64,000 bases of DNA from Escherichia virus TH57. The stretch lies in the sequence record MT446422.1; one strand, given 5' to 3'. Below are positions 1 through 58,412 of this stretch, piece by piece; the first letter of the stretch is position 1, and each line of letters starts with the position of its first letter. The notes beneath the pieces are model-generated. The model worked only from the letters and a program-made list of their open reading frames with translations. It was not told the origin of the DNA and searched no databases. The position numbers and the translations under genes are program-made.

Positions 1-143
1 GCACCAGCAGCATGAGGATTTTCCCCATCACCGAGCTGGTAGTAAAGGTCATCAAAGTTATTATTAATTTTTTGACCGCCGAGACGAAGATAATCGCCGG
101 TGCCATCATCGACCATCACGCCTATTTTTAAATTTTGTTTCAT
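1..143 (-). CDS. 10: baseplate wedge protein gp10, N-terminal fragment (continues beyond window start)
   Basis: Minus-strand ATG at 143..141 overlaps gp9 stop (TAATG); N-terminus MKQNLKIGVMVDDGTGDYLR matches the conserved gp9/gp10 N-terminal module; lies downstream of gp9 as in T4. Confidence 0.7.
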   Translation of the reverse strand, partial: MKQNLKIGVMVDDGTGDYLRLGGQKINNNFDDLYYQLGDGENPHAAG

Positions 144-1012
144 TAGATTGCTACCCCAATGGTTTGTGTCTCGGCTACCTTAATGGCGAGCTTCATGGAG
201 ACTGGTGCGCTTACGGTCGCCGTAACGAAGTTGTCAGCGCCTATTTTAAAGTTAATGGTATATAACTCGTCATCGTCATCCACGTGACCACGACGCAATA
301 CACCGTATTCTGTGCTATACACTTGGTTAGTCTGAGTGTCTACAAAGAGCATGACCTCTGATGCTTTGTATTTAGTTTCATCGGTAGATATAGCGGTTAA
401 CAAAAGTTTCATTGTTTTGAAATCACCGCGCAATGCAATGGGAATATCTCTTGCGTTCAGGCCAATATTATAAGTTCGGTCCAAAGGAATGTGTTTTACA
501 CCAAACATATTTTCGATTGAATAATCCCAGGTACCGACACCGTTTGCATCATCAATACACCAAAGAGTAATCTTTGTATAAGGGCTGGTGAAGCGAATTT
601 TGTTGGTCGGAGCCGAAACGAAAGTATCTGTGCCTTGTAGTTCGATTTCTAAAGATTGAGTTGGCGATAAAGTCCCATTAGAGTTAATGAAGATAATACC
701 TTCACCCATTTTACCGCGGGCAATCCTGGCAGTAACAACACCCTTGGAGGTATCAACATCACGGAGAGAACCAAGCGCAACAGGAGTGTTCCATTCGATT
801 ATGTTTGTTGCTTTTTGATAATAACCAGTAGCATGCAAGACTTGGGAGTTCTGACCATTATCGATTGCATAAAGACGTTGGTCACCGAAGGTATTATAGA
901 CGTTATTAAAATCTTCGTTAATTTTACGACCACCATCATATAAGATATCGCCGGTGCTGGCGTTACCAATTTCGCCGACATCTATTAAAAGTTTTGGAGT
1001 TTGATTAATCAT
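143..1012 (-). CDS. 9: baseplate wedge / long tail fiber socket protein gp9
   Basis: ORF track 289 aa, same length class as T4 gp9; synteny gp8-gp9-gp10; RBS and late promoter upstream. Confidence 0.85.
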   Translation of the reverse strand: MINQTPKLLIDVGEIGNASTGDILYDGGRKINEDFNNVYNTFGDQRLYAIDNGQNSQVLHATGYYQKATNIIEWNTPVALGSLRDVDTSKGVVTARIARGKMGEGIIFINSNGTLSPTQSLEIELQGTDTFVSAPTNKIRFTSPYTKITLWCIDDANGVGTWDYSIENMFGVKHIPLDRTYNIGLNARDIPIALRGDFKTMKLLLTAISTDETKYKASEVMLFVDTQTNQVYSTEYGVLRRGHVDDDDELYTINFKIGADNFVTATVSAPVSMKLAIKVAETQTIGVAI

Positions 1013-1051: not shown

Positions 1052-1073
1052 AAAAAAGGGACCCGAAGGTCCC
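1052..1073 (-). terminator. rho-independent terminator after gp8
   Basis: Minus-strand GGGACC-TTCG-GGTCCC hairpin followed by TTTTTT. Confidence 0.65.
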
Positions 1074-1076
1074 TAG

Positions 1077-2081
1077 TTAGAATTCAAAAATAATATTTAC
1101 TTCTTCAGTTTGGTCCATTGCACGATAAACAGGTGGCCTGTTTTCCATGTAAATCATTTCACCAGAATGACGACTCAAATCAATAGCATCGTAATATTCT
1201 TTTGTTGCTTTGATGTTCGGGTCATTAGGTGCAGCTTTGATTTCCAGAGGGTTGGCGACAATTGAAATCTGTCGAAAACCTTTGTTACCTGGAAGGCTGA
1301 ATTGAGGGAAATAAATCGAATCCATGAAAGCCTTGAAACGAATTGTATTGCCCTTGATACGATAGATTAAACCATAATCATTTTGCTGCCATGTCAGGTT
1401 ATCTTTGTATCCCCAACGTTCCGGGTCTTCTGCAATTTCTTCTGGCCATGGAACAACGATATATTCGTTTGTACAACGGTTAATGGATACATCAGGCGGA
1501 ATCTCATAGAGATATTCCCAGAGATAACCATCACCCATATCAACACGACCTTCGGTGTCACCAGTCCCAGATGGAGCACGACTGGAAGCATAGTCTGACG
1601 TCCATTTGCCGCCAAGCTTAAGACATTCTTGCTTATTGGTGATGGAATAAATCGAACATGTACCAGATTCAGGAATATCCACGCAACGATAAACCATCCA
1701 ACCTTTACCAACATCAGTTCGGTTATATGGAGCTGTATTACTTACGACAATTTCACCAATCTGAAAGTTCAGCGGGTTAGGATAACGAACATCACCCCAA
1801 TCTTTACGAGGAACCACGCAGTCAAGCATGGATTTATAAACCTTGACTGCGCCCATCATATTGGACCAAACATCTTCAACACCTTGAGCATCATCAACCG
1901 GATAAGGTGGAGCAAAGCCCGGGTCGTTTTCGTTTGCGGCCCATGGTTCTGCACGGCCAAACGTGACATACATTGTATTTTCAGTTGCGCCATCTCCGAT
2001 AGCGCTGTAGAAGTTATACATTTTTTCCGTTCTGAATTTTGATGTAACAATTGAACGGTAAACTACGGTAGAGTTATTCAT
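1077..2081 (-). CDS. 8: baseplate wedge protein gp8
   Basis: ORF track 334 aa (T4 gp8 is 334 aa); overlaps gp7 stop; synteny. Confidence 0.85.
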   Translation of the reverse strand: MNNSTVVYRSIVTSKFRTEKMYNFYSAIGDGATENTMYVTFGRAEPWAANENDPGFAPPYPVDDAQGVEDVWSNMMGAVKVYKSMLDCVVPRKDWGDVRYPNPLNFQIGEIVVSNTAPYNRTDVGKGWMVYRCVDIPESGTCSIYSITNKQECLKLGGKWTSDYASSRAPSGTGDTEGRVDMGDGYLWEYLYEIPPDVSINRCTNEYIVVPWPEEIAEDPERWGYKDNLTWQQNDYGLIYRIKGNTIRFKAFMDSIYFPQFSLPGNKGFRQISIVANPLEIKAAPNDPNIKATKEYYDAIDLSRHSGEMIYMENRPPVYRAMDQTEEVNIIFEF

Positions 2082-5000
2082 TTACATTTACCTGTGTAGG
2101 ATTAACCGGGTCTCTTGGATTACCAATATCATCTTTAAGACGTTGGTCAACTAATGCTCTCCAATTTGAGAATGTAACAGCCGACTGGTCAAACAGTGGA
2201 CTATATTTTCCACGACGTTGTGACGGTAACAACCCATAGAACATGGAGAAATCATTCTCGGCATCATAATCGGCTGGTAATGGGAATGGTTGACCAGCAT
2301 TAGGAGCGATGTTATATATTGCTTCACCTGTGATAGGGTTTTTCTCAATAGTACCATCAACACCAATCACTGCAACTCGGTCATTCCATTCTGACGGAAT
2401 ACCAGAAGACCATCTATAGTTACTTAATTTATTAATGATTGTCTCGGTGTGTTTAAGAGTCAAACCAACGTTAACAAACATTGTCAGCAACGTAATACCG
2501 ATGAATCCAAATCCAACCGGGTGAACGAATCGCAAAACATCATTACGATAACGAGAGGTTGGAAGGTTTGACTTAATTGTCATTACGTAATAAGAGCGGT
2601 TACGATTAATATAATCGATGTTGTTGCTCAACAACTCTTTACCACGAACACCTTGCACAATCATCCCCTTGAATGAGGTTCTTTCTGATTTAATTTCTTG
2701 CCCAACAATAAAACGTCCCAGGAGGTTATGAATAGTAATACGCCATCTTAATTTACCGTCTTTATAATCGCGCTCCATATAAGTCACATTACTGCGACCA
2801 GTTGCAGTATAAATGGTTTGGCCTACAATGTCTTCACTGATATTATCAGATTCAACTACGATATCATACTCGGTTCCGTTCTTGGATTCGATGTCAATTT
2901 CAACATCTTCATTATACAGCAATTTGAACAGGAATTTATAAGACGCTTCTGTGCCTTTTGTTGCCCAAAAATCAGACTGTCGGGCCTGGAAGAATCGAAC
3001 AGCTTCGTCACGTTTTTCCTTGGAGAGGTAAATGTTGCGTTTGTACATTTCACTCCAGAGGTATTCCCATGCATCTTCCTCGCGTGGATATTGGTTACGA
3101 ATAAGATTCAACAGGTTGTTATAGTATGTACCAGAACCATCACTGATGAACTGCAAATAATATTCACAGAATTTTTCAAATTTACTATCCTGCAAAAGAT
3201 AGCTATCCGGAACCATCTTCGTTAATAATGGCTGCAGGTCAGGGTCTTTTTCCTTATTCTCATTTTCTGGAGTCCATGGAATATCATGTTCCTGGTTTTG
3301 CAGTTCGGCCATAAGCATAATTTCTTTTGGCTTCCAGATGATACGCACTTCATCGCGCACGCGATAGTCAAACTCAAAATAGCCAATTAATTCCCCAGTA
3401 TTTTTATGAAGCATAATCCCGGAGGCATATTTTTTAAAGCCATTGAATTCGATGTTAGGTGCAGTAATCGTTACTTGACCTTTGTTCCAATATTCATGCA
3501 CGATACGTTCCGGGGAAGTTCCACTAAATGTATCGATGATATACTGGTAAAGAACATCGTTATAGACGACCATTGCTCGGTCTGAAGTCGTAATCCAGCA
3601 ACGAGTATCGTCACGTCTTGACCAGTTAAAGAACGGCTCTGCATAGTAAGTCATACGCCCAGGTTTGAACTCTTCAAAGCCAGAATCTTCGCCAGCTCTG
3701 AAACTCATCATCAGGTAATGCTTATCATGTATCCATTGTTCATCGTAAACGTATTTGACTGCTTCGTTAACTTCATCAGGATATTTAAGAGGAAGTTCAG
3801 TATCAGGCTCAACCGAATATTTGAAGTTGCTGGAGCTAAAGAATACTTCGATGCCATCAGTTGACATGCTTGCATAACCATGTTCGATTCGGCGGCGTTC
3901 TTCTTCTGTATTACCAAAAACTCTCGTCCATGTATCAGTAACAGGGTCTAATTTATAAACACCTTTATCCAGAGAGTCAACAACGTTTTCAGGTTTAGTT
4001 GGGTCTTGTCTTTCTTCTTTAACTTCACCTGTAATTAATGCAAACGTATGGCCTTGAACTGAATCCATTTTATAGCAAACTGCTTTAGGGTTCGCCGTAA
4101 TTGTACTGTAACCAGTTTCAAATAGTTTTTCACCAAAAGTCGGAGACCCTGGGGTTGTATCAATCGGCGCATCAGAGGTTTTTGCTTTATATACACGACC
4201 ACGAGCCGCAACATAAATGAACTCATCCGAAACCGTAATAGCTTCTGCTATTTGCGAAATATATGCCGGAAGTCTTGCATAGTTACCGAAGATTTCAATA
4301 TCAAATCCAAGGTTAATATCCGAACCGACTTTAGCAAATGTAATATCTTCAGAACTGAATCGAACATCATCTGCAGACCATCTTATATCGCTTGATTGGC
4401 GACCATAGAATATACGGTCATACCCCAAAACGTAAGTTGTGGTATCAGTCTGGTAATATACAGTTCTTGATACAGGGTTACCGACCCGCTCGTTAAAGAG
4501 TCTTATGTAATACCAGTTCTGGCCTTTGTCATTGGAGACTTTAACCATCGGCTGGAATCGTTCGAACAAATAAAGAACTCCACCGAGTTCAGCAAGCATC
4601 GTGCGGTTTTGGTCAACACAAACTGCTTGAATCGGTCCCTGGATTTCGTGATATTGGTCTTCTTGTAAAACATAGTTCGAGATTGAAGACAAATGAGAAT
4701 ATGCAGAGGTCCATGTAAAGTCTTCGGTCATCAATGAGGCCATAATAGCATCATTGTTAAAGTTGATATATCTCTGATTGTTATTGGTGAATTTTTCTTC
4801 AATGAATTTATTAGCCAAACTAAATTCGCGCATATGTTCAAAAGTATACGCGTTTGTTGCAAAGGTTTCAAATTCTTCGGTGTATTCCCAATCAGACCGT
4901 TCGAAGCCCATTGCCGCAACAGACACGCGCATCTGATAACTTGTTAACGGACGAATATATTCCTGCTCGAACCATTCATTGTCTGCGGTATAACCAAGGT

Positions 5001-5169
5001 CACGCCAAATTAAATCTCTAGTTGGGATGTGTACTCCATTTTCTGTGATTTGCGCAATCTCCACAAAATAGTAAAAGTTGGAGCCTACATCATCCCATTT
5101 AATACTAACTTGGTTGGCAGATAGTTTATCAATCCGCAAGCTAGTAACAGAAGGGGCTTTAACGGTCAT
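2074..5169 (-). CDS. 7: baseplate wedge initiator gp7
   Basis: ORF track 1031 aa (T4 gp7 about 1032 aa); synteny gp6-gp7-gp8. Confidence 0.9.
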   Translation of the reverse strand: MTVKAPSVTSLRIDKLSANQVSIKWDDVGSNFYYFVEIAQITENGVHIPTRDLIWRDLGYTADNEWFEQEYIRPLTSYQMRVSVAAMGFERSDWEYTEEFETFATNAYTFEHMREFSLANKFIEEKFTNNNQRYINFNNDAIMASLMTEDFTWTSAYSHLSSISNYVLQEDQYHEIQGPIQAVCVDQNRTMLAELGGVLYLFERFQPMVKVSNDKGQNWYYIRLFNERVGNPVSRTVYYQTDTTTYVLGYDRIFYGRQSSDIRWSADDVRFSSEDITFAKVGSDINLGFDIEIFGNYARLPAYISQIAEAITVSDEFIYVAARGRVYKAKTSDAPIDTTPGSPTFGEKLFETGYSTITANPKAVCYKMDSVQGHTFALITGEVKEERQDPTKPENVVDSLDKGVYKLDPVTDTWTRVFGNTEEERRRIEHGYASMSTDGIEVFFSSSNFKYSVEPDTELPLKYPDEVNEAVKYVYDEQWIHDKHYLMMSFRAGEDSGFEEFKPGRMTYYAEPFFNWSRRDDTRCWITTSDRAMVVYNDVLYQYIIDTFSGTSPERIVHEYWNKGQVTITAPNIEFNGFKKYASGIMLHKNTGELIGYFEFDYRVRDEVRIIWKPKEIMLMAELQNQEHDIPWTPENENKEKDPDLQPLLTKMVPDSYLLQDSKFEKFCEYYLQFISDGSGTYYNNLLNLIRNQYPREEDAWEYLWSEMYKRNIYLSKEKRDEAVRFFQARQSDFWATKGTEASYKFLFKLLYNEDVEIDIESKNGTEYDIVVESDNISEDIVGQTIYTATGRSNVTYMERDYKDGKLRWRITIHNLLGRFIVGQEIKSERTSFKGMIVQGVRGKELLSNNIDYINRNRSYYVMTIKSNLPTSRYRNDVLRFVHPVGFGFIGITLLTMFVNVGLTLKHTETIINKLSNYRWSSGIPSEWNDRVAVIGVDGTIEKNPITGEAIYNIAPNAGQPFPLPADYDAENDFSMFYGLLPSQRRGKYSPLFDQSAVTFSNWRALVDQRLKDDIGNPRDPVNPTQVNVNE

Positions 5170-5197
5170 TAAGATTCCTTAAAGCCTCCGAAGAGGC

Positions 5198-7156
5198 TTA
5201 TAATGTAATTGGTTCTAAATTAATAGTCGTATACTGTGGACGAAGGTCATTTTCGAATACGATAAGCGAACCGTCTTTTGTATAGATATTGTCCTGGACT
5301 GGACCTGCATACAATTCGATTGATTGCACTTCAAAACGTTCAGAAGATAAACCAATTGCAGCGATGTCCCAGAAAATATAATCAGACCAATAATCGATTT
5401 CGCCGATTACAAAGTATTGAGTCTGGTCAGCTGGTGCAGCCATCTTATTAAAGTCAGTACCTGTATAAGGTTGAATATTTGTATTAAGCTGAACATCACC
5501 TGGACGGAACGGACCAATGACCATTTTACCATCACCAGATGAGTTGCGGTCAGTCGCTACAATACGGACGTTATATGAGGTAACAGTATCACTTTGGTTA
5601 GTTGGAACAAATTCGAATTCGCTTGATTCCACAGACCTATTAGTATATTGATTATAATATTTAATGCCTGATTCTGGAGTCTTAAAGAAGTTCAAGACTT
5701 CACGAACCATTGTCACCGTTGCAGACGAACCCAAAATACTATGGTCAGTATTATCCACATAAGTGAGCATTTTCGATTTAGCAAAACTGTGGTTAAACAA
5801 TTCAACTTCATCGATATAATAGCGGTCAATCTGGTTAATGATTTGTGCTTGCAACCACTGTTCAGATTCCTGTAATTTATTCAGCGCATAAGACACTTTG
5901 ATATTGTGTTTAAGGAACAAATAATCAGGAGAAATAACTGATGGTGTAATTGTTGATACGTTGAACTCACTAAGGTAGTTTTTGATGTCCTCACGCTGCA
6001 CTGCGGTGAGATACAAGCCCGATTTAGGCTTAACTGATATAAACGCATACCCAGGTTTATTTGCGTCCGTAAACGTCTGTACGGCTTGTACGATTGAGCC
6101 AAATCTTTCTGATACGAAGGTATCATAATCAGTCCCGGTGACAGCACGCATCTGCGCTTCACGTTTAACTACAGCCAGTTCGCGGATTCGTTCAATATCT
6201 TCCGGGTCACCGCCACCATCAGCTCCAACGTAATCTTTATCGTTATTATAGTTTTCGGTAATCTTGTCAACAGTGATATAAGACAAGGAGTCAGCATAGC
6301 TGAAGTCAACTGCACCATTTGCATCAGCCCCTGATGTGCGAAGATATTCGATAACAATTGTTGAATCCTGTACGGGTTTCAGTCCACCAATATAGTTTGC
6401 TTCCAATACGCCACCGGCAACAGATTTGGTCGATTCACCTTCACCGAAGAAGAATTCGGTATTACCATCAACAGTTTCACGCATATAGAAAATAGTGGAC
6501 GTTGAACCAGCATGAACCATTGATTTGTTTGTCCAGTCAGTCCACTCGATGCCGTTCACAAAAAGCTTAACTTCTTTTCGGTCAATATCCGGGTCACGAA
6601 TAAGAATAGGCTGTTTCGGGTCATACAAAAGTTCGGTACGAATAATGCGGCCTTGTGCAAGGGATACAATCGGCAGATATTGGTTATTAATGTCTTTTAC
6701 CGCGATTACATTATCCGTTGTGACAAACATATAAGGGTCAGCTGATGTATCACGAGCATAAGCCAGGAACTTGGTCCCGCGTGGAATTTCAATATTCGAT
6801 GGTTGGAGAGCATGAGAACATGTTAGCATAACCGAAGTCTTTGCGGCCGAACGTGAAGATGGGAGATAACCATTATCCTGTGCAGCCTGAACAACCGAAG
6901 ACCTTAGGTTTGCAGTTCCGATAAATGATTCATAAACTGCTGTATTAGCAAACTGCTGCATATACAATGTATTATATGCAAGCATATCAATCAGGATATT
7001 CATTCGCGAACCTACGAAATCATAATCCTTAAATTCGTCCTGGCTTGATAGCCAGTCTATAATATTCTTTTTAATTTCTTCAAACGTAGCTCCCACAAAT
7101 ACTTTTGGGATAGCGTTAACGGTTCTTGTTAATTGGTAATTCGTAGGAGTAGCCAT
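5198..7156 (-). CDS. 6: baseplate wedge protein gp6
   Basis: ORF track 652 aa (T4 gp6 about 660 aa); synteny. Confidence 0.9.
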   Translation of the reverse strand: MATPTNYQLTRTVNAIPKVFVGATFEEIKKNIIDWLSSQDEFKDYDFVGSRMNILIDMLAYNTLYMQQFANTAVYESFIGTANLRSSVVQAAQDNGYLPSSRSAAKTSVMLTCSHALQPSNIEIPRGTKFLAYARDTSADPYMFVTTDNVIAVKDINNQYLPIVSLAQGRIIRTELLYDPKQPILIRDPDIDRKEVKLFVNGIEWTDWTNKSMVHAGSTSTIFYMRETVDGNTEFFFGEGESTKSVAGGVLEANYIGGLKPVQDSTIVIEYLRTSGADANGAVDFSYADSLSYITVDKITENYNNDKDYVGADGGGDPEDIERIRELAVVKREAQMRAVTGTDYDTFVSERFGSIVQAVQTFTDANKPGYAFISVKPKSGLYLTAVQREDIKNYLSEFNVSTITPSVISPDYLFLKHNIKVSYALNKLQESEQWLQAQIINQIDRYYIDEVELFNHSFAKSKMLTYVDNTDHSILGSSATVTMVREVLNFFKTPESGIKYYNQYTNRSVESSEFEFVPTNQSDTVTSYNVRIVATDRNSSGDGKMVIGPFRPGDVQLNTNIQPYTGTDFNKMAAPADQTQYFVIGEIDYWSDYIFWDIAAIGLSSERFEVQSIELYAGPVQDNIYTKDGSLIVFENDLRPQYTTINLEPITL

Positions 7157-16485: not shown

Positions 16486-16560
16486 GGCCCTTTAGCTCAA
16501 TGGGAGAGCTGTCAGCTCATAACTGATAGGTAGCTGGATCGAAACCAGCAAGGGCCACCA
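16486..16560 (+). tRNA. tRNA with CAT anticodon (Met, or Ile if lysidine-modified), CCA encoded
   Basis: Manual cloverleaf: acceptor GGCCCTT/AAGGGCC, D-stem GCTC/GAGC, anticodon loop CTCATAA, T-arm GCTGG-ATCGAAA-CCAGC, 3' ACCA. Confidence 0.8.
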
Positions 16561-16564
16561 AACG

Positions 16565-16641
16565 CGGGGTGTAGCTCAATTGTATAGAGCAACGGTCTTC
16601 TAAACCGTAGGTTGTGGGTTAGAATCCCACCACCCCGACCA
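16565..16641 (+). tRNA. tRNA-Arg (anticodon TCT), CCA encoded
   Basis: Manual cloverleaf: acceptor CGGGGTG/CACCCCG, D-stem GCTC/GAGC, anticodon stem ACGGT/ACCGT with loop CTTCTAA, T-arm GTGGG-TTAGAAT-CCCAC, 3' ACCA. Confidence 0.85.
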
Positions 16642-33680: not shown

Positions 33681-33710
33681 AAAAGGTCTGCCTTCGGGTG
33701 GACCTTTTTT
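33681..33710 (+). terminator. rho-independent terminator
   Basis: AAAAGGTC...GACCTTTT stem with TTCG loop region, followed by TTTTTT. Confidence 0.6.
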
Positions 33711-35738: not shown

Positions 35739-36191
35739 ATGATTATCAATACAAACTCATGGCACGCTCGTTTCCACGACCGTTTTTATGACCGCCATTC
35801 TCGACCACACTCTTTGTGTGCTTACTTTTGGAAAATTGTATGGGCCTGCTTTATTTGTTCTGTGCTTGCAGGTAGTACAATCTTCGCCTTATCTGCTGCA
35901 GGTGCTGGTATATTGGAGCAGTTCTTTGTATTAAGTATTCCTGTTGGTTTAGGGTTAGGGTTTATTTTAGGACTAGCTACAGTAGCTCTTATTCTGGCTG
36001 TAGCATTTGGTTTAATGTACGGTCTAATGAATTTATGGTCCTGGTACGATTTACATAAAGAAGAAAAAGAATGGAAACGTATTCAAGCTGAGCGTGAAGG
36101 CCGAGAAACTAAAGAAAACGTTTTCATTCAATATATCAAAGCTCGTAAATCTAAGATGTGTCCGGTAATCCATTTTGAGGCGAAGAAATGA
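35739..36191 (+). CDS. multi-pass membrane protein
   Basis: Several hydrophobic helices; translationally coupled (ATGA) to the downstream nucleotidyltransferase-fold gene. Confidence 0.55.
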   Translation: MIINTNSWHARFHDRFYDRHSRPHSLCAYFWKIVWACFICSVLAGSTIFALSAAGAGILEQFFVLSIPVGLGLGFILGLATVALILAVAFGLMYGLMNLWSWYDLHKEEKEWKRIQAEREGRETKENVFIQYIKARKSKMCPVIHFEAKK

Positions 36192-37198
36192 GAACAGTTA
36201 TGAAAGGCTACTTCGGTAGCCATCTTTATGGAACAAGTACTCCTGAATCTGATGTCGATTTTAAGGAAATCTTTGTTCCACACCCACGTGATATTCTGTT
36301 AGGTACGGCTATGAACCATACCAACTTGAACACGAATAATACGGCATCCAAAAACACTAAAGACGATGTTGACCACGAGCTTTATAGTCTGAAATATTTC
36401 TTTAAACTGGCGGCTGAAGGCGAAACTGTTGCTCTGGACATGATTCACACTCCGGCTAACCTGGTAGTCAAATCCGATTTACCAGATGTATGGAAATTTA
36501 TCCAAGACAACCGTTCACGGTTCTATACAACTAACATGAAAGCCTATTTGGGGTATGTCCGTAAGCAAGCTTCAAAATATGGTGTTAAAGGTTCTAGACT
36601 GGCTGCTCTGCGTGGTGTACTGGCAATTGTTAACCAGATTCCTGAACAGTGGGTCGATTATCAAGAAGATGGTTCTGTTAAACAGCGTCGAACTAAGGTA
36701 GAAGATATTAAGCACCGACTCCCTGAAAACGAGTTCTGTGAATGGGTATTTCATAACCATGAGAAAACAGGTCCTCAAACGTTCTATACTGTCCTCGGTC
36801 GTAAATACCAAACCACTTTGTCGTTAATCGAGCTTAAGCAATCTCTGAATAAGCTTGATTCTGAATATGGTGAACGTGCTCGCAAGGCCGAAGCCAATGA
36901 AGGTATTGACTGGAAAGCTCTGAGCCACGCTTATCGTGCTGGATATCAGTTGAAGGAAATTTATATGACCGGTGACCTTCAATATCCTTTACGAACAGCC
37001 CCATTTATCCTTGAAATCAAACAAGGCCTACACGCTTTTAAAGATGTACAAGCTGAACTTGAAGCAATCGTCGATGAAGTCGAAACCAATGCCATCTGGG
37101 CGGCCAAGAACGGCATGCCAGACAAGGTAGACATGAAGTTCTGGGACAAGTTTGTTGAAGAGGTATATCTTGACAACCACAATTCCTATTATTGTTAA
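36188..37198 (+). CDS. Pol-beta-superfamily nucleotidyltransferase-fold protein
   Basis: N-terminal GS-x11-DxD motif (GSHLYGTSTPESDVDF) typical of the NTase fold; 336 aa. Confidence 0.55.
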   Translation: MRTVMKGYFGSHLYGTSTPESDVDFKEIFVPHPRDILLGTAMNHTNLNTNNTASKNTKDDVDHELYSLKYFFKLAAEGETVALDMIHTPANLVVKSDLPDVWKFIQDNRSRFYTTNMKAYLGYVRKQASKYGVKGSRLAALRGVLAIVNQIPEQWVDYQEDGSVKQRRTKVEDIKHRLPENEFCEWVFHNHEKTGPQTFYTVLGRKYQTTLSLIELKQSLNKLDSEYGERARKAEANEGIDWKALSHAYRAGYQLKEIYMTGDLQYPLRTAPFILEIKQGLHAFKDVQAELEAIVDEVETNAIWAAKNGMPDKVDMKFWDKFVEEVYLDNHNSYYC

Positions 37199-37204
37199 AT
37201 TCTA

Positions 37205-37229
37205 AGGACCCTTCGGGGTCCTTTTTTTA
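37205..37229 (+). terminator. rho-independent terminator
   Basis: AGGACCC-TTCG-GGGTCCT hairpin followed by TTTTTTT. Confidence 0.65.
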
Positions 37230-55500: not shown

Positions 55501-56196
55501 ATGAAATTCTCTAAAGACACTATCGCAGTTCTGAAAAACTTCACCTCCATCTACTCTGGCATTATGCTTAAGCCAGGTAATACCATCCTGACCCGTTCTG
55601 TAACTGGAGCGTCATATGGCGAAGCCGAAATCAATGATACAATTGACTTTGAAGCTGCGATTTATGACCTGAACGGCTTCTTAAGTATCCTGGGCCTGGT
55701 AACTGACCAAGCTGAAGTATCTCTGGCTGAAGATGCATCGAATATCATTATCAAAGACCAACGTTCAACGATTCACTGGCCTGCAGCAGACCCGAGCACT
55801 ATCGTGTTCCCTGCTAAGAAGATTCCTTTCCCGGTAGCTAAGGTTATCTTCGACCTGAAAGGCAGTGACCTGCAGCAGCTTCTGCGTGTGGCTGGTGGTT
55901 TGTCTCTGGATACTTTTGCAATCACCAACAAAGACGGTAAGATTGTTATCCATGGTTATAACCAGCTCGAAGATAAAGAATTAGCGCGTCCATTGTATTC
56001 CCTGGTGTGTGGTGATTACGAAGGTGATGCAGCGTTTAAATTTATCATTAACAAACTGAACATGAAAATGATTCCGGCTGATTACCGTGTTATGCTTTGG
56101 GCAAAAGATGATAAATTTGCTACGAAGTTTGAAGGTACACAAGCAAGCTATGTGATTGCAATGGAACAAGGCTCTAGCCACGAATTCCAAGATTAA
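55501..56196 (+). CDS. 45: sliding clamp gp45
   Basis: 231 aa; MKFSKDTIAVLKNFTSIYSGIMLK...HWPAADPST...LQQLLRV... matches T4 gp45. Confidence 0.95.
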   Translation: MKFSKDTIAVLKNFTSIYSGIMLKPGNTILTRSVTGASYGEAEINDTIDFEAAIYDLNGFLSILGLVTDQAEVSLAEDASNIIIKDQRSTIHWPAADPSTIVFPAKKIPFPVAKVIFDLKGSDLQQLLRVAGGLSLDTFAITNKDGKIVIHGYNQLEDKELARPLYSLVCGDYEGDAAFKFIINKLNMKMIPADYRVMLWAKDDKFATKFEGTQASYVIAMEQGSSHEFQD

Positions 56197-56254
56197 TAAA
56201 TGGGGCTTCGGCCCCATGGAGTACAAAGTAGAAACTAATATGAGGAAAATAATA

Positions 56255-58391: not shown

Positions 58392-58412
58392 AAAGGGACT
58401 TCGGTCCCTTTT
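58392..58412 (+). terminator. hairpin (terminator or gene 43 regulatory structure)
   Basis: AAAGGGAC-TTCG-GTCCCTTT perfect hairpin followed by T-rich sequence and a TATAAT box. Confidence 0.55.

Follow-up and report, generated by a model that had tools for sequence, protein, structure and literature searches.

What does an 18-nt hairpin do between two baseplate genes that are transcribed together? The window, the whole stretch of 64,000 nt that was analyzed (MT446422.1, Escherichia virus TH57), comes from a Gaprivervirus of the Tevenvirinae with ~97% DNA identity to VR7/VR25. On its minus strand, the list of open reading frames places the coding sequence of baseplate wedge subunit gp6 (5198..7156, 652 aa, stop codon TAA at 5200-5198) ahead of that of the baseplate wedge initiator gp7 (2074..5169, 1031 aa, start codon ATG at 5169-5167). 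The identity of gp6 follows from the ORF annotated as gp6 baseplate wedge subunit in VR7/VR25, and the gp7 N-terminus, MTVKAPSVTSLRI, can be aligned with gp7 of T4, 44RR, RB49, and Acj9. On the minus strand the junction reads ...ATT ACA TTA TAA GCCTCTTCGGAGGCTTTAAGGAATCTTA ATG ACC GTT. It forms part of a late polycistronic transcript, gp53-5-5.1-5.4-6-7-8, and the hairpin, here called H1, is intra-operon because the gp6–gp7 interval contains no late promoter, the nearest good match (TATAAATG) lying upstream of gp53. One candidate late promoter, TATAA(G/A)CC, is always present where gp6 ends and resembles TATAAATA, but it was rejected: it agrees at 5–6 of 8 positions and is absent from the sites with at most one mismatch, and its TATAA arises because the last codon, NTA, is followed by the stop TAA.

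The preliminary description had reported a hairpin over the gp6 stop codon just upstream of gp7, and H1 (AAGCCUC-UUCG-GAGGCUU, 5182..5199, minus strand) is exactly that. Its 5′ arm (5199-5193) and 3′ arm (5188-5182) form a perfect 7-bp stem of Watson–Crick pairs, with no mismatches and G-C at 5/7, around a loop at 5192-5189; the first bases are the last two (AA) of the gp6 stop codon, and 12 nt separate the 3′ end from the gp7 ATG. CTTCGG at 5193-5188 supplies the four-base loop and its closing C-G pair, and the loop is UUCG in the mRNA sense only. With this loop, an uninterrupted sense-strand helix, and a site between cistrons, H1 is a T-even intercistronic C(UUCG)G/UNCG hairpin. T4 mRNA is where UUCG-loop hairpins were discovered, the C(UUCG)G type being called "extraordinarily stable" (Tuerk et al. 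1988, summarized in PMC4371310). Like the C(UUCG)G hairpins of T4 mRNA, H1 combines a C-G-closed UUCG loop with a short perfect stem in the mRNA sense and belongs to a set that is enriched in TH57 DNA. Unlike them, it stands at a position that is empty in T4, its relatives tolerate UCCG, UUAG, and UAAC loops, and its high thermodynamic stability is a prediction (about −10.0 to −10.5 kcal/mol for H1 alone in the nearest-neighbor model). A scan of the whole window with Rfam 15 at the gathering score returned two tRNAs only and no match at H1, and a permissive scan of 5050-5350 returned nothing relevant; CRISPR-DR46, on the plus strand near H1, is sub-threshold (22.4 bits vs. 50, E = 0.28). No second copy of H1 occurs in the 64,000 nt at up to 3 mismatches, and H1 is therefore not a dispersed repeat. 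Our literature search found nothing specific on intercistronic CUUCGG hairpins in T4 or on the terminators of VR7.

As a generic 7-bp hairpin, H1 is not beyond chance in this DNA: 20 perfect hairpins with 7-bp stems and 4-nt loops occur on the two strands vs. 11.1 ± 4.7 in 200 dinucleotide shuffles. As a member of the C(UUCG)G class it does exceed chance, because the class is strongly enriched, and conservation agrees independently. CTTCGG is observed 36 times against 17.6 ± 4.1 expected (0/100 shuffles reach 36), and C(UUCG)G hairpins whose stems have 6 bp or more number 7 against a shuffle mean of 0.175 and maximum of 3, a 40-fold enrichment. UUCG is in the mRNA sense in all seven, and six of the seven are intercistronic. 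Three members of the set, terminator-like hairpins of the same type as H1 at 1057-1074, 33681-33708, and 37204-37223, close operons and are followed by a leading run of 6–8 T, so the phage employs H1-type hairpins as terminators. The one at 37204-37223 begins, exactly as H1 does, with the AA that ends a TAA stop codon.

Similarity to these terminators extends to the flanks of H1, which is G+C-rich with A's upstream and U's downstream. Unlike an intrinsic terminator, however, H1 lies inside an operon and has only 3 U (3–5 in its relatives) before the Shine-Dalgarno sequence (SD). The U-tract that follows its G+C core is a truncated UUU (5181..5183, minus strand; tail UUUAAGGA), of which two U are base-paired to the stop-codon AA, and it falls short of the tract of an intrinsic terminator (some 5 U or more in the 8 nt directly 3′ of the stem). 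H1 is thus not a good terminator, because only 3 U follow the G+C core. Its tail score is 2.50, vs. 4.7–5.9 for the operon-end terminators and 0.6 for the 45/44 hairpin. All of the 6/7 hairpins in the comparison have 3–5 U directly after the core and tail scores of 2.5–3.7; the VR26/RZ lineage has 5 U (VR26 tail UUUUUAAGG). In the terminator scan the H1 site is not listed. An exact search of IMG/VR for the 14-nt core, GCCTCTTCGGAGGC, found it on more than 120 unrelated viral contigs among the matches listed, and at 49/82 sense occurrences among the matches listed at least 5 T lie within 8 nt downstream. A collection of this size should, roughly estimated, contain many chance matches to an exact 14-mer; the matches are silent on homology and show only that the core usually precedes a T-rich tail. 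The earlier proposal of an intra-operon attenuator remains a live reading, favored by the T-rich tails found elsewhere and by the 3–5 U of the 6/7 hairpins, and weakened by the 3 U here and the absence from the terminator scan. Because of these last two points, attenuation by H1, if any, is probably weak as far as sequence features can tell, and termination may be negligible. H1 is at most leaky, since the essential genes downstream have no promoter of their own.

The preliminary description survives its own criterion, conservation in related phages. H1 is kept in every Gaprivervirus and Dhakavirus sampled, and its 18 nt are 83–100% identical across the two genera, compared with 43–70% at flanking third codon positions. 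Pair 3 forms a compensatory series, G-C in Gaprivervirus, G.U in the JS98/VR5 type, and A-U in Bp7, of which the G.U state permits pairing in the sense RNA only. Further afield, the 6/7 slot of T4-like phages of Aeromonas and Pseudomonas holds hairpins with other stems (GGGCC/GGCCC in Aeromonas), which may have been gained independently and not be homologous to H1. Among nine variants that include these phages, a set gathered by searching for hairpins, 98.4% of cells are paired and both sides have changed in 4/7 pairs; 0/500 shuffles reach the observed covariation score, and slid registers drop to 25–70% paired. The loop at the 6/7 junction may be UUCG, UCCG, UUAG, or UAAC (UCCG, still UNCG, in VR7/VR25), variation that points to stability and not to a ligand that recognizes the loop sequence. 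Taken as a comparison of sequences, these patterns show H1 to be under purifying selection for pairing.

Such selection is difficult to reconcile with the possibility that H1 lacks any current RNA-level function and is instead a relic, for example of a former operon-end terminator or a recombination scar, or a palindrome acting at the DNA level. The hairpin is missing in T4 and most relatives, and is therefore dispensable in principle; its core is generic among phages; and the junction tolerates insertions, as in Klebsiella phage KpV477, where a homing endonuclease gene sits between gp6 and gp7. Yet H1 is conserved far above neighboring synonymous sites, the G.U step of its compensatory series can pair in the sense RNA only, the UNCG orientation is always gene-sense, and different stems have repeatedly filled the 6/7 slot. 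We therefore regard a relic or DNA-level palindrome as improbable. A homing-endonuclease scar as the origin of H1 was rejected, as the KpV477 insertion has ATGA-type overlaps and lacks a hairpin at either border.

A comparison with the T4 6–7 junction, suggested in the preliminary description, yields no counterpart to H1, because in T4 the two genes share an ATGA overlap. Judged from aligned junctions, H1 takes the place of this overlap. The hairpin state is found in at least three lineages, with differing stems, and a metagenome scan for 6/7 junctions added few new types. On the sequences compared, the junction has two states: an ATGA overlap with a GAG-codon SD inside gp6, or a spacer in which stop codon, hairpin, a separate SD, and ATG follow one another. 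GGAG/GAGG is present in 20/21 distinct overlapping junctions, built on a GAG codon from the (L/M)-E motif conserved at the gp6 C-terminus and positioned at −14/−15 in 18 of them and at −17/−18 in the other two, which are TAATG junctions. Where the spacer measures at least 10 nt (11 distinct junctions), all have GAA in place of GAG, have lost the internal SD, and carry an SD-like AGGA/GGAG at −9 to −11. L104 has a spacer SD (TAAGGAATTGATGATG) and no hairpin; relocation of the SD therefore needs no hairpin.

In TH57, the gp7 SD is AAGGA (5180..5176, minus strand), 6 nt before the ATG and outside H1, and all lineages with the hairpin have a separate AAGGA, AAGGAG, or TGGAG 5–6 nt upstream of the gp7 ATG. 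The GGAGG of H1 is not the gp7 SD. The motif is where the preliminary description had placed it (5189-5185, the first G 20 nt from the A of the ATG), and it is kept within Gaprivervirus and Dhakavirus. It could in principle be a masked upstream Shine-Dalgarno, a standby site, or an SD decoy that becomes exposed when the hairpin opens. However, it is not conserved more widely, the purine run being missing from the GGGCC/GGCCC stems of Aeromonas phages and found in the 5′ arm in PspYZU05. At 15 nt from the ATG it is too far away for an SD, whereas AAGGA is optimally spaced. Nor is there a hairpin between GGAGG and the AUG, unlike in the split ribosome-binding sites of T4 genes 25 and 38, where an enhancing hairpin, by lying between the two, brings a distant SD closer to the AUG (PMC3014915). 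H1 differs from that type in lying upstream of the SD, with an SD-to-AUG spacing of 6 nt already. That the GGAGG, on which the preliminary description had laid emphasis, is the functional part of H1 seems to us extremely improbable.

The regular placement of the hairpin next to the SD suggests another possibility, that its role is mainly translational. A fast-folding, self-contained hairpin would lock up a G+C-rich spacer and keep the gp7 SD and AUG from pairing either with that spacer or with the coding sequence of gp6, insulating the ribosome-binding site. The ancestral initiation of gp7, coupled to termination (ATGA), would thereby become independent and use a strong SD at a good spacing. 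The hairpin ends 0–2 nt upstream of the SD in every hairpin-bearing lineage, and SD position tracks junction type, with the internal GAG-codon SD in overlaps and positions −9 to −11 in spacers. The predicted cost of opening the region from SD to AUG is 1.4–2.8 kcal/mol lower with the native hairpin than with its deletion in 8/9 lineages, and in 9/9 it is smaller than the average for shuffled spacers of matched composition. These effects, all of them thermodynamic predictions, are small and individually non-significant (0.01–0.47 of shuffles are at or below the native value); the Aer_L066 type derives no benefit, and the spacer SD of L104 exists without a hairpin. An insulating role is possible but, in our assessment, doubtful.

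Direct occlusion of the gp7 start by H1 can be set aside. Like the inhibitory TIR structures of T4 (e, soc, 49, I-TevI type), H1 lies near a T4-type ribosome-binding site in a late mRNA; unlike them, it neither includes nor separates the functional SD (5180-5176) and AUG (5169-5167), both of which lie outside the stem, so the hairpin does not sequester them. A predicted alternative hairpin, H2 (5153..5189, minus strand), would resemble the inhibitory type, but it is unconserved. It pairs GGAGGCUUUAA (5189-5179) with UUAAAGCCCC (5162-5153, gp7 codons 3–6), encloses the gp7 SD and AUG, and is predicted to be mutually exclusive with H1. In the TH57 sequence H2 is the predicted minimum-free-energy fold (−14.2 kcal/mol vs. 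−13.0 for the best fold in which H1 is retained), and the closing pair of H1 has a probability of 0.16. This slight preference of the nearest-neighbor model for H2 is counted against the reading that we favor below, as is the absence of a 6/7 hairpin from T4 and most relatives.

H1 and H2 could form a two-state switch in which a ribosome at the gp6 stop codon melts H1, H2 forms, and gp7 initiation is transiently repressed, tuning the 2:1 ratio of the two proteins. In VR25 and VR20, too, H2 is a competitor (P(H1) 0.40–0.43), C6-like phages have a competing analogue in a different register, and blocking the 5′ arm takes the predicted opening cost of the TH57 ribosome-binding site from 4.5 to 7.9 kcal/mol. 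Elsewhere the predictions go the other way: P(H1) is 1.00 in the VR26 type, the Bp7 type, and 44RR and 0.96–0.99 in PspYZU05 and Aer_L066, and blocking the 5′ arm lowers the opening cost in VR26, PspYZU05, and 44RR. There is no covariation, because the C6-like pairing is in another register; the 3′ partner of H2 is conserved V-K-A-P coding sequence, which ribosomes on gp7 would mask; and the 81-nt fold has a z of only −1.72. As a conserved switch, H2 was rejected because its pairing is not conserved across lineages, and we consider the two-state mechanism highly improbable for the junction, with slightly lower odds again for the proposal that gp7 output would be a fixed fraction of gp6 output through such a switch. 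If true, the switch would be a negative translational coupling in place of the positive ATGA coupling of T4.

The explanation that we favor is that H1, a hairpin between cistrons of the mRNA, works as a barrier to decay, a leaky attenuator, or both, a tentative reading from sequence comparison to which we assign a probability of roughly 0.45. H1 occupies a slot of 18 nt that separates the stop codon of gp6 from the ribosome-binding site of gp7. As a 3′-end structure, it may block 3′-to-5′ exonucleases, act as a leaky intrinsic terminator, or do both, and RNA of the upstream segment, which ends in gp6, would then be longer-lived or more abundant than that of the gp7–gp8 segment. Translation of gp7 would proceed independently, from an SD of its own left unpaired beside a self-contained hairpin. 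Intercistronic stabilizer hairpins, such as the REP elements in malE-malF and the hairpins of Rhodobacter puf, produce differential expression within operons. Like these, H1 directly follows the stop codon of a cistron whose product must outnumber that of the next; unlike REP, it is not a repeated sequence. Differential output of gp6 and gp7 would fit the stoichiometry of the wedge, (gp6)2-(gp7)1 (PMC6300606). Simple polarity would nonetheless mismatch demand over the whole operon, because gp8, which is downstream of gp7, is needed as much as gp6. In the T4 baseplate, the copies of gp8 needed equal those of gp6.

By itself H1 matters little: it is one more well-documented and evolutionarily supported case of the long-known UUCG-capped intercistronic hairpins of T4-type phages. 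The hairpin together with the adjoining ribosome-binding site offers a ready-made part for phage engineering. The gp6/gp7 junction, with its two states, is a natural system for the effects of a hairpin on structural genes whose products are needed 2:1.

The gp6/gp7 junction carries a hairpin at the gp6 stop codon, upstream of gp7, as the preliminary description had reported. On the minus strand the junction reads ...ATT ACA TTA TAA GCCTCTTCGGAGGCTTTAAGGAATCTTA ATG ACC GTT AAA GCC CCT..., in which TAA (5200-5198) closes a 652-aa ORF (5198..7156) and the ATG at 5169 opens a 1031-aa ORF (2074..5169), both from the ORF list. The Escherichia phages VR25 and VR7 (Gaprivervirus, Tevenvirinae) share ~97% identity with the window across this region, have both ORFs annotated as the baseplate wedge subunits gp6 and gp7, and have a 28-nt spacer identical in length to the window's; the gp7 N terminus, MTVKAPSVTSLRI, can be aligned with gp7 of T4, 44RR2.8t, RB49, and Acj9. 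The hairpin, H1, pairs AAGCCUC (5199-5193) with GAGGCUU (5188-5182) around a UUCG loop (5192-5189), giving a 7-bp Watson-Crick stem capped by a C(UUCG)G tetraloop; it begins with the final two bases of the gp6 stop and ends 12 nt from the gp7 ATG. The coordinates also bear out its GGAGG (5189-5185), whose first base is 20 nt upstream of that ATG, and outside the stem AAGGA (5180-5176), the gp7 Shine-Dalgarno sequence (SD), lies 6 nt upstream of the ATG.

Selection on pairing has kept a sense-strand, UNCG-capped hairpin between the gp6 stop and the gp7 ribosome-binding site (RBS). We examined the junction in ~95 retrieved loci, in which many phages are represented more than once (GenBank, 20 records; IMG/VR, 57 loci; metagenomes, 17 loci; and a first IMG/VR scan, a further 14). 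T4, whose 6-7 junction had been suggested for comparison, has no H1 and its genes overlap as ATGA; T2-like phages, RB49, Acj9, T4-likes of Klebsiella, Serratia, and Enterobacter, and most others also lack a spacer, with ATGA overlaps and a few TAATG. A check in related phages, likewise suggested, found H1 in every sampled Gaprivervirus and Dhakavirus (VR7, VR25, VR20, SP18, CJ20, P896, phage 212, VR26, RZ, TH41, VR5, ABTNLsp5, IME540, C6, 04086, and Bp7). The loop varies to UCCG (VR7/VR25) and UUAG (C6/04086); in the JS98/VR5 type a 3′ arm of GAGGUUU turns one G-C pair into G.U, and in Bp7 (AAACCUC/GAGGUUU) the same pair is A-U. Between lineages the 18-nt H1 is 83-100% identical, vs. 43-70% at adjacent third codon positions. 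The same slot holds UAGAGGC-UUCG-GCCUCUU, roughly the window stem with its arms exchanged, in Pseudomonas phage PspYZU05, AAGGGCC-UUCG-GGCCCUU in Aeromonas phage 44RR2.8t, and AAGGGCC-UAAC-GGCCCUU in other Aeromonas phages (L066, L068, L080, and L105). UAAC is also the loop sequence of the T4/RB69 gp43 translational operator (PMC3014915), probably by coincidence. All hairpin-bearing junctions share one layout: a UAA stop at or a few nt from the 5′ end of a G+C-rich stem, 3-5 U, an SD (AAGGA, AAGGAG, GAGGAG, or UGGAG), 5-6 nt, and ATG. Across nine distinct variants, gathered by searching for hairpins, 98.4% of cells are paired, both sides have changed in 4/7 pairs, the covariation score is reached by 0/500 shuffles, and slid registers are only 25-70% paired. 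Because these sequences were chosen for having hairpins, Aeromonas and Pseudomonas phages may have gained theirs independently; this caveat does not touch the G-C, G.U, A-U series within the clearly homologous Gaprivervirus/Dhakavirus group.

Other arrangements also occur at this position. In Klebsiella phage KpV477 (L110, NC_031087.1 83298-85118) a homing endonuclease gene (369-1070) sits exactly between gp6 and gp7, overlapping gp6 as TAATG and gp7 as ATGA, so the junction is also an insertion site for mobile genes. In Shewanella phage Thanatos-1 (L109, MT457552.1, 340-403; also L108) a hypothetical gene, not gp6, lies upstream of gp7, and between that gene and the gp7 ATG come, in order, TATAAATA as a perfect late promoter, the GNRA hairpin AAAGGGC-GAAA-GCCCTTT, and an SD; this further lineage thus has a tetraloop hairpin just 5′ of the gp7 RBS, but in a 5′ leader.

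The earlier proposal that H1 modulates gp7 translation or acts as an intra-operon attenuator stands in part: H1 is conserved and could be an attenuator, but its GGAGG is not the gp7 SD. That motif lies 15 nt from the ATG and is conserved only within Gaprivervirus and Dhakavirus. GGAG/GAGG is found in 20/21 distinct overlapping junctions, built on the GAG codon of a conserved gp6 C-terminal (L/M)-E motif (5218-5213 in the window); relative to the ATG it is at -14/-15 in 18 of the junctions and at -17/-18 in the other two, which are TAATG junctions. The Glu codon follows junction type exactly, being GAG in the 20 overlapping junctions with Glu and GAA in 12/12 junctions whose spacer measures 5 nt or more; where the spacer is 10 nt or longer (11 distinct junctions), GAA is always combined with a spacer AGGA/GGAG at -9 to -11. 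Together, these codon and SD positions indicate that the functional gp7 SD has been relocated to the spacer, just past the hairpin's 3′ arm. A metagenomic relative (L104) has a spacer SD without a hairpin, TAAGGAATTGATGATG.

ViennaRNA favors an alternative, mutually exclusive hairpin, H2 (5153-5189), in which GGAGGCUUUAA (5189-5179) pairs with UUAAAGCCCC (5162-5153, gp7 codons 3-6), enclosing the SD and AUG (predicted -14.2 kcal/mol, against -10.5 for H1 alone and -13.0 for the best H1-keeping fold; P(H1) 0.16). The competitor is also predicted in VR25 and VR20, with a different-register analogue in C6-like phages, and could suggest an H1/H2 switch. However, the 3′ arm of H2 is conserved V-K-A-P coding sequence, and H1 is essentially the sole predicted structure in the VR26 type, the Bp7 type, PspYZU05, and Aeromonas phages; the 81-nt fold reaches a z of only -1.72. 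We consider a switch of low probability and treat H2 as incidental. Deleting the native hairpin raises the predicted cost of opening SD to AUG in 8/9 lineages, and in 9/9 the native cost is below the average for shuffled spacers of matched composition, with a weak effect per lineage (0.01-0.47 of shuffles at or under the native cost). These predictions fit H1 as a self-contained hairpin that leaves the RBS undisturbed and may insulate it, and do not strongly separate the readings. H1 fits neither the inhibitory TIR structures of T4 nor the split-RBS hairpins of T4 genes 25 and 38 (PMC3014915).

H1 exceeds chance as a C(UUCG)G hairpin, not as a generic one. Perfect hairpins with a 7-bp stem and 4-nt loop number 20 on both strands vs. 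11.1 +/- 4.7 in dinucleotide shuffles, which is not beyond chance. CTTCGG occurs 36 times in the window (17.6 +/- 4.1 expected), and seven times with a stem of 6 bp or more (0.175 expected, shuffle maximum 3). In 7/7 of these hairpins, H1 being the seventh, UUCG reads in the same sense as the flanking genes, and 3/7 are operon ends with a run of 6-8 T; H1 therefore belongs to a class that also serves this phage as terminators. UUCG hairpins were first discovered in T4 mRNA (PMC4371310). The operon-end terminator 3′ of gp8 is AGGGACC-TTCG-GGTCCCT plus a T-run (1057-1074, minus strand); within 10 nt of it, a perfect late promoter TATAAATA (1047-1040, minus strand) precedes the next ORF (143..1012), probably gp9. 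Another member (58392-58411) precedes the DNA polymerase gene. ATGGGGC-TTCG-GCCCCAT (56200-56217, plus strand), directly 3′ of the stop of a 231-aa ORF (55501..56196; the gene 45 homologue by its position), has no U-tract, is followed by GGAG, and is a second member that is no terminator; it lies ~35 nt upstream of ATGAGGAAAATAATAATG, which resembles the T4 gene 44 RBS/RegA site. The sole non-intercistronic member is GGCTAC-TTCG-GTAGCC (6-bp stem; 36206-36221, plus strand), which encodes G-Y-F-G-S early in ORF 36188..37198. Among other RNA features, the window has two adjacent tRNA genes (16486-16557 and 16565-16638, plus strand; Rfam RF00005, 61 and 74 bits).

As a terminator, H1 could act only partially. 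Its site is absent from the terminator scan listing, and its G+C core is followed in the window by UUUAAGGA, with 3 U and a tail score of 2.50, compared with 4.7-5.9 for operon-end hairpins, 0.6 for the 45/44 hairpin, and 3.69 for the VR26/RZ/TH41 lineage (UUUUU); the U-tract of H1 is shortened by the SD of the next gene. Among the matches listed, >120 unrelated viral contigs contain this same 14-nt core, which is followed by at least 5 T within 8 nt in 49/82 sense occurrences; being widespread and usually followed by T's, it is of a generic phage terminator type. No late promoter was found close to gp7, and the gp7 and gp8 ORFs overlap, so any termination at H1 must be partial. The nearest good late-promoter match, TATAAATG (10347-10340, minus strand; one mismatch from consensus), lies upstream of the gp53 homologue, is followed directly by GGAGGCTTT ATG, and is probably the late promoter of a gp53-5-6-7-8 operon.

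We infer that H1 serves the late polycistronic mRNA as a 3′-end structure that either blocks exonucleases or terminates transcription leakily, with gp7 initiating independently from its own SD. Such a structure would favor gp6 over gp7, which is consistent with the (gp6)2-(gp7)1 stoichiometry of the wedge (PMC6300606).
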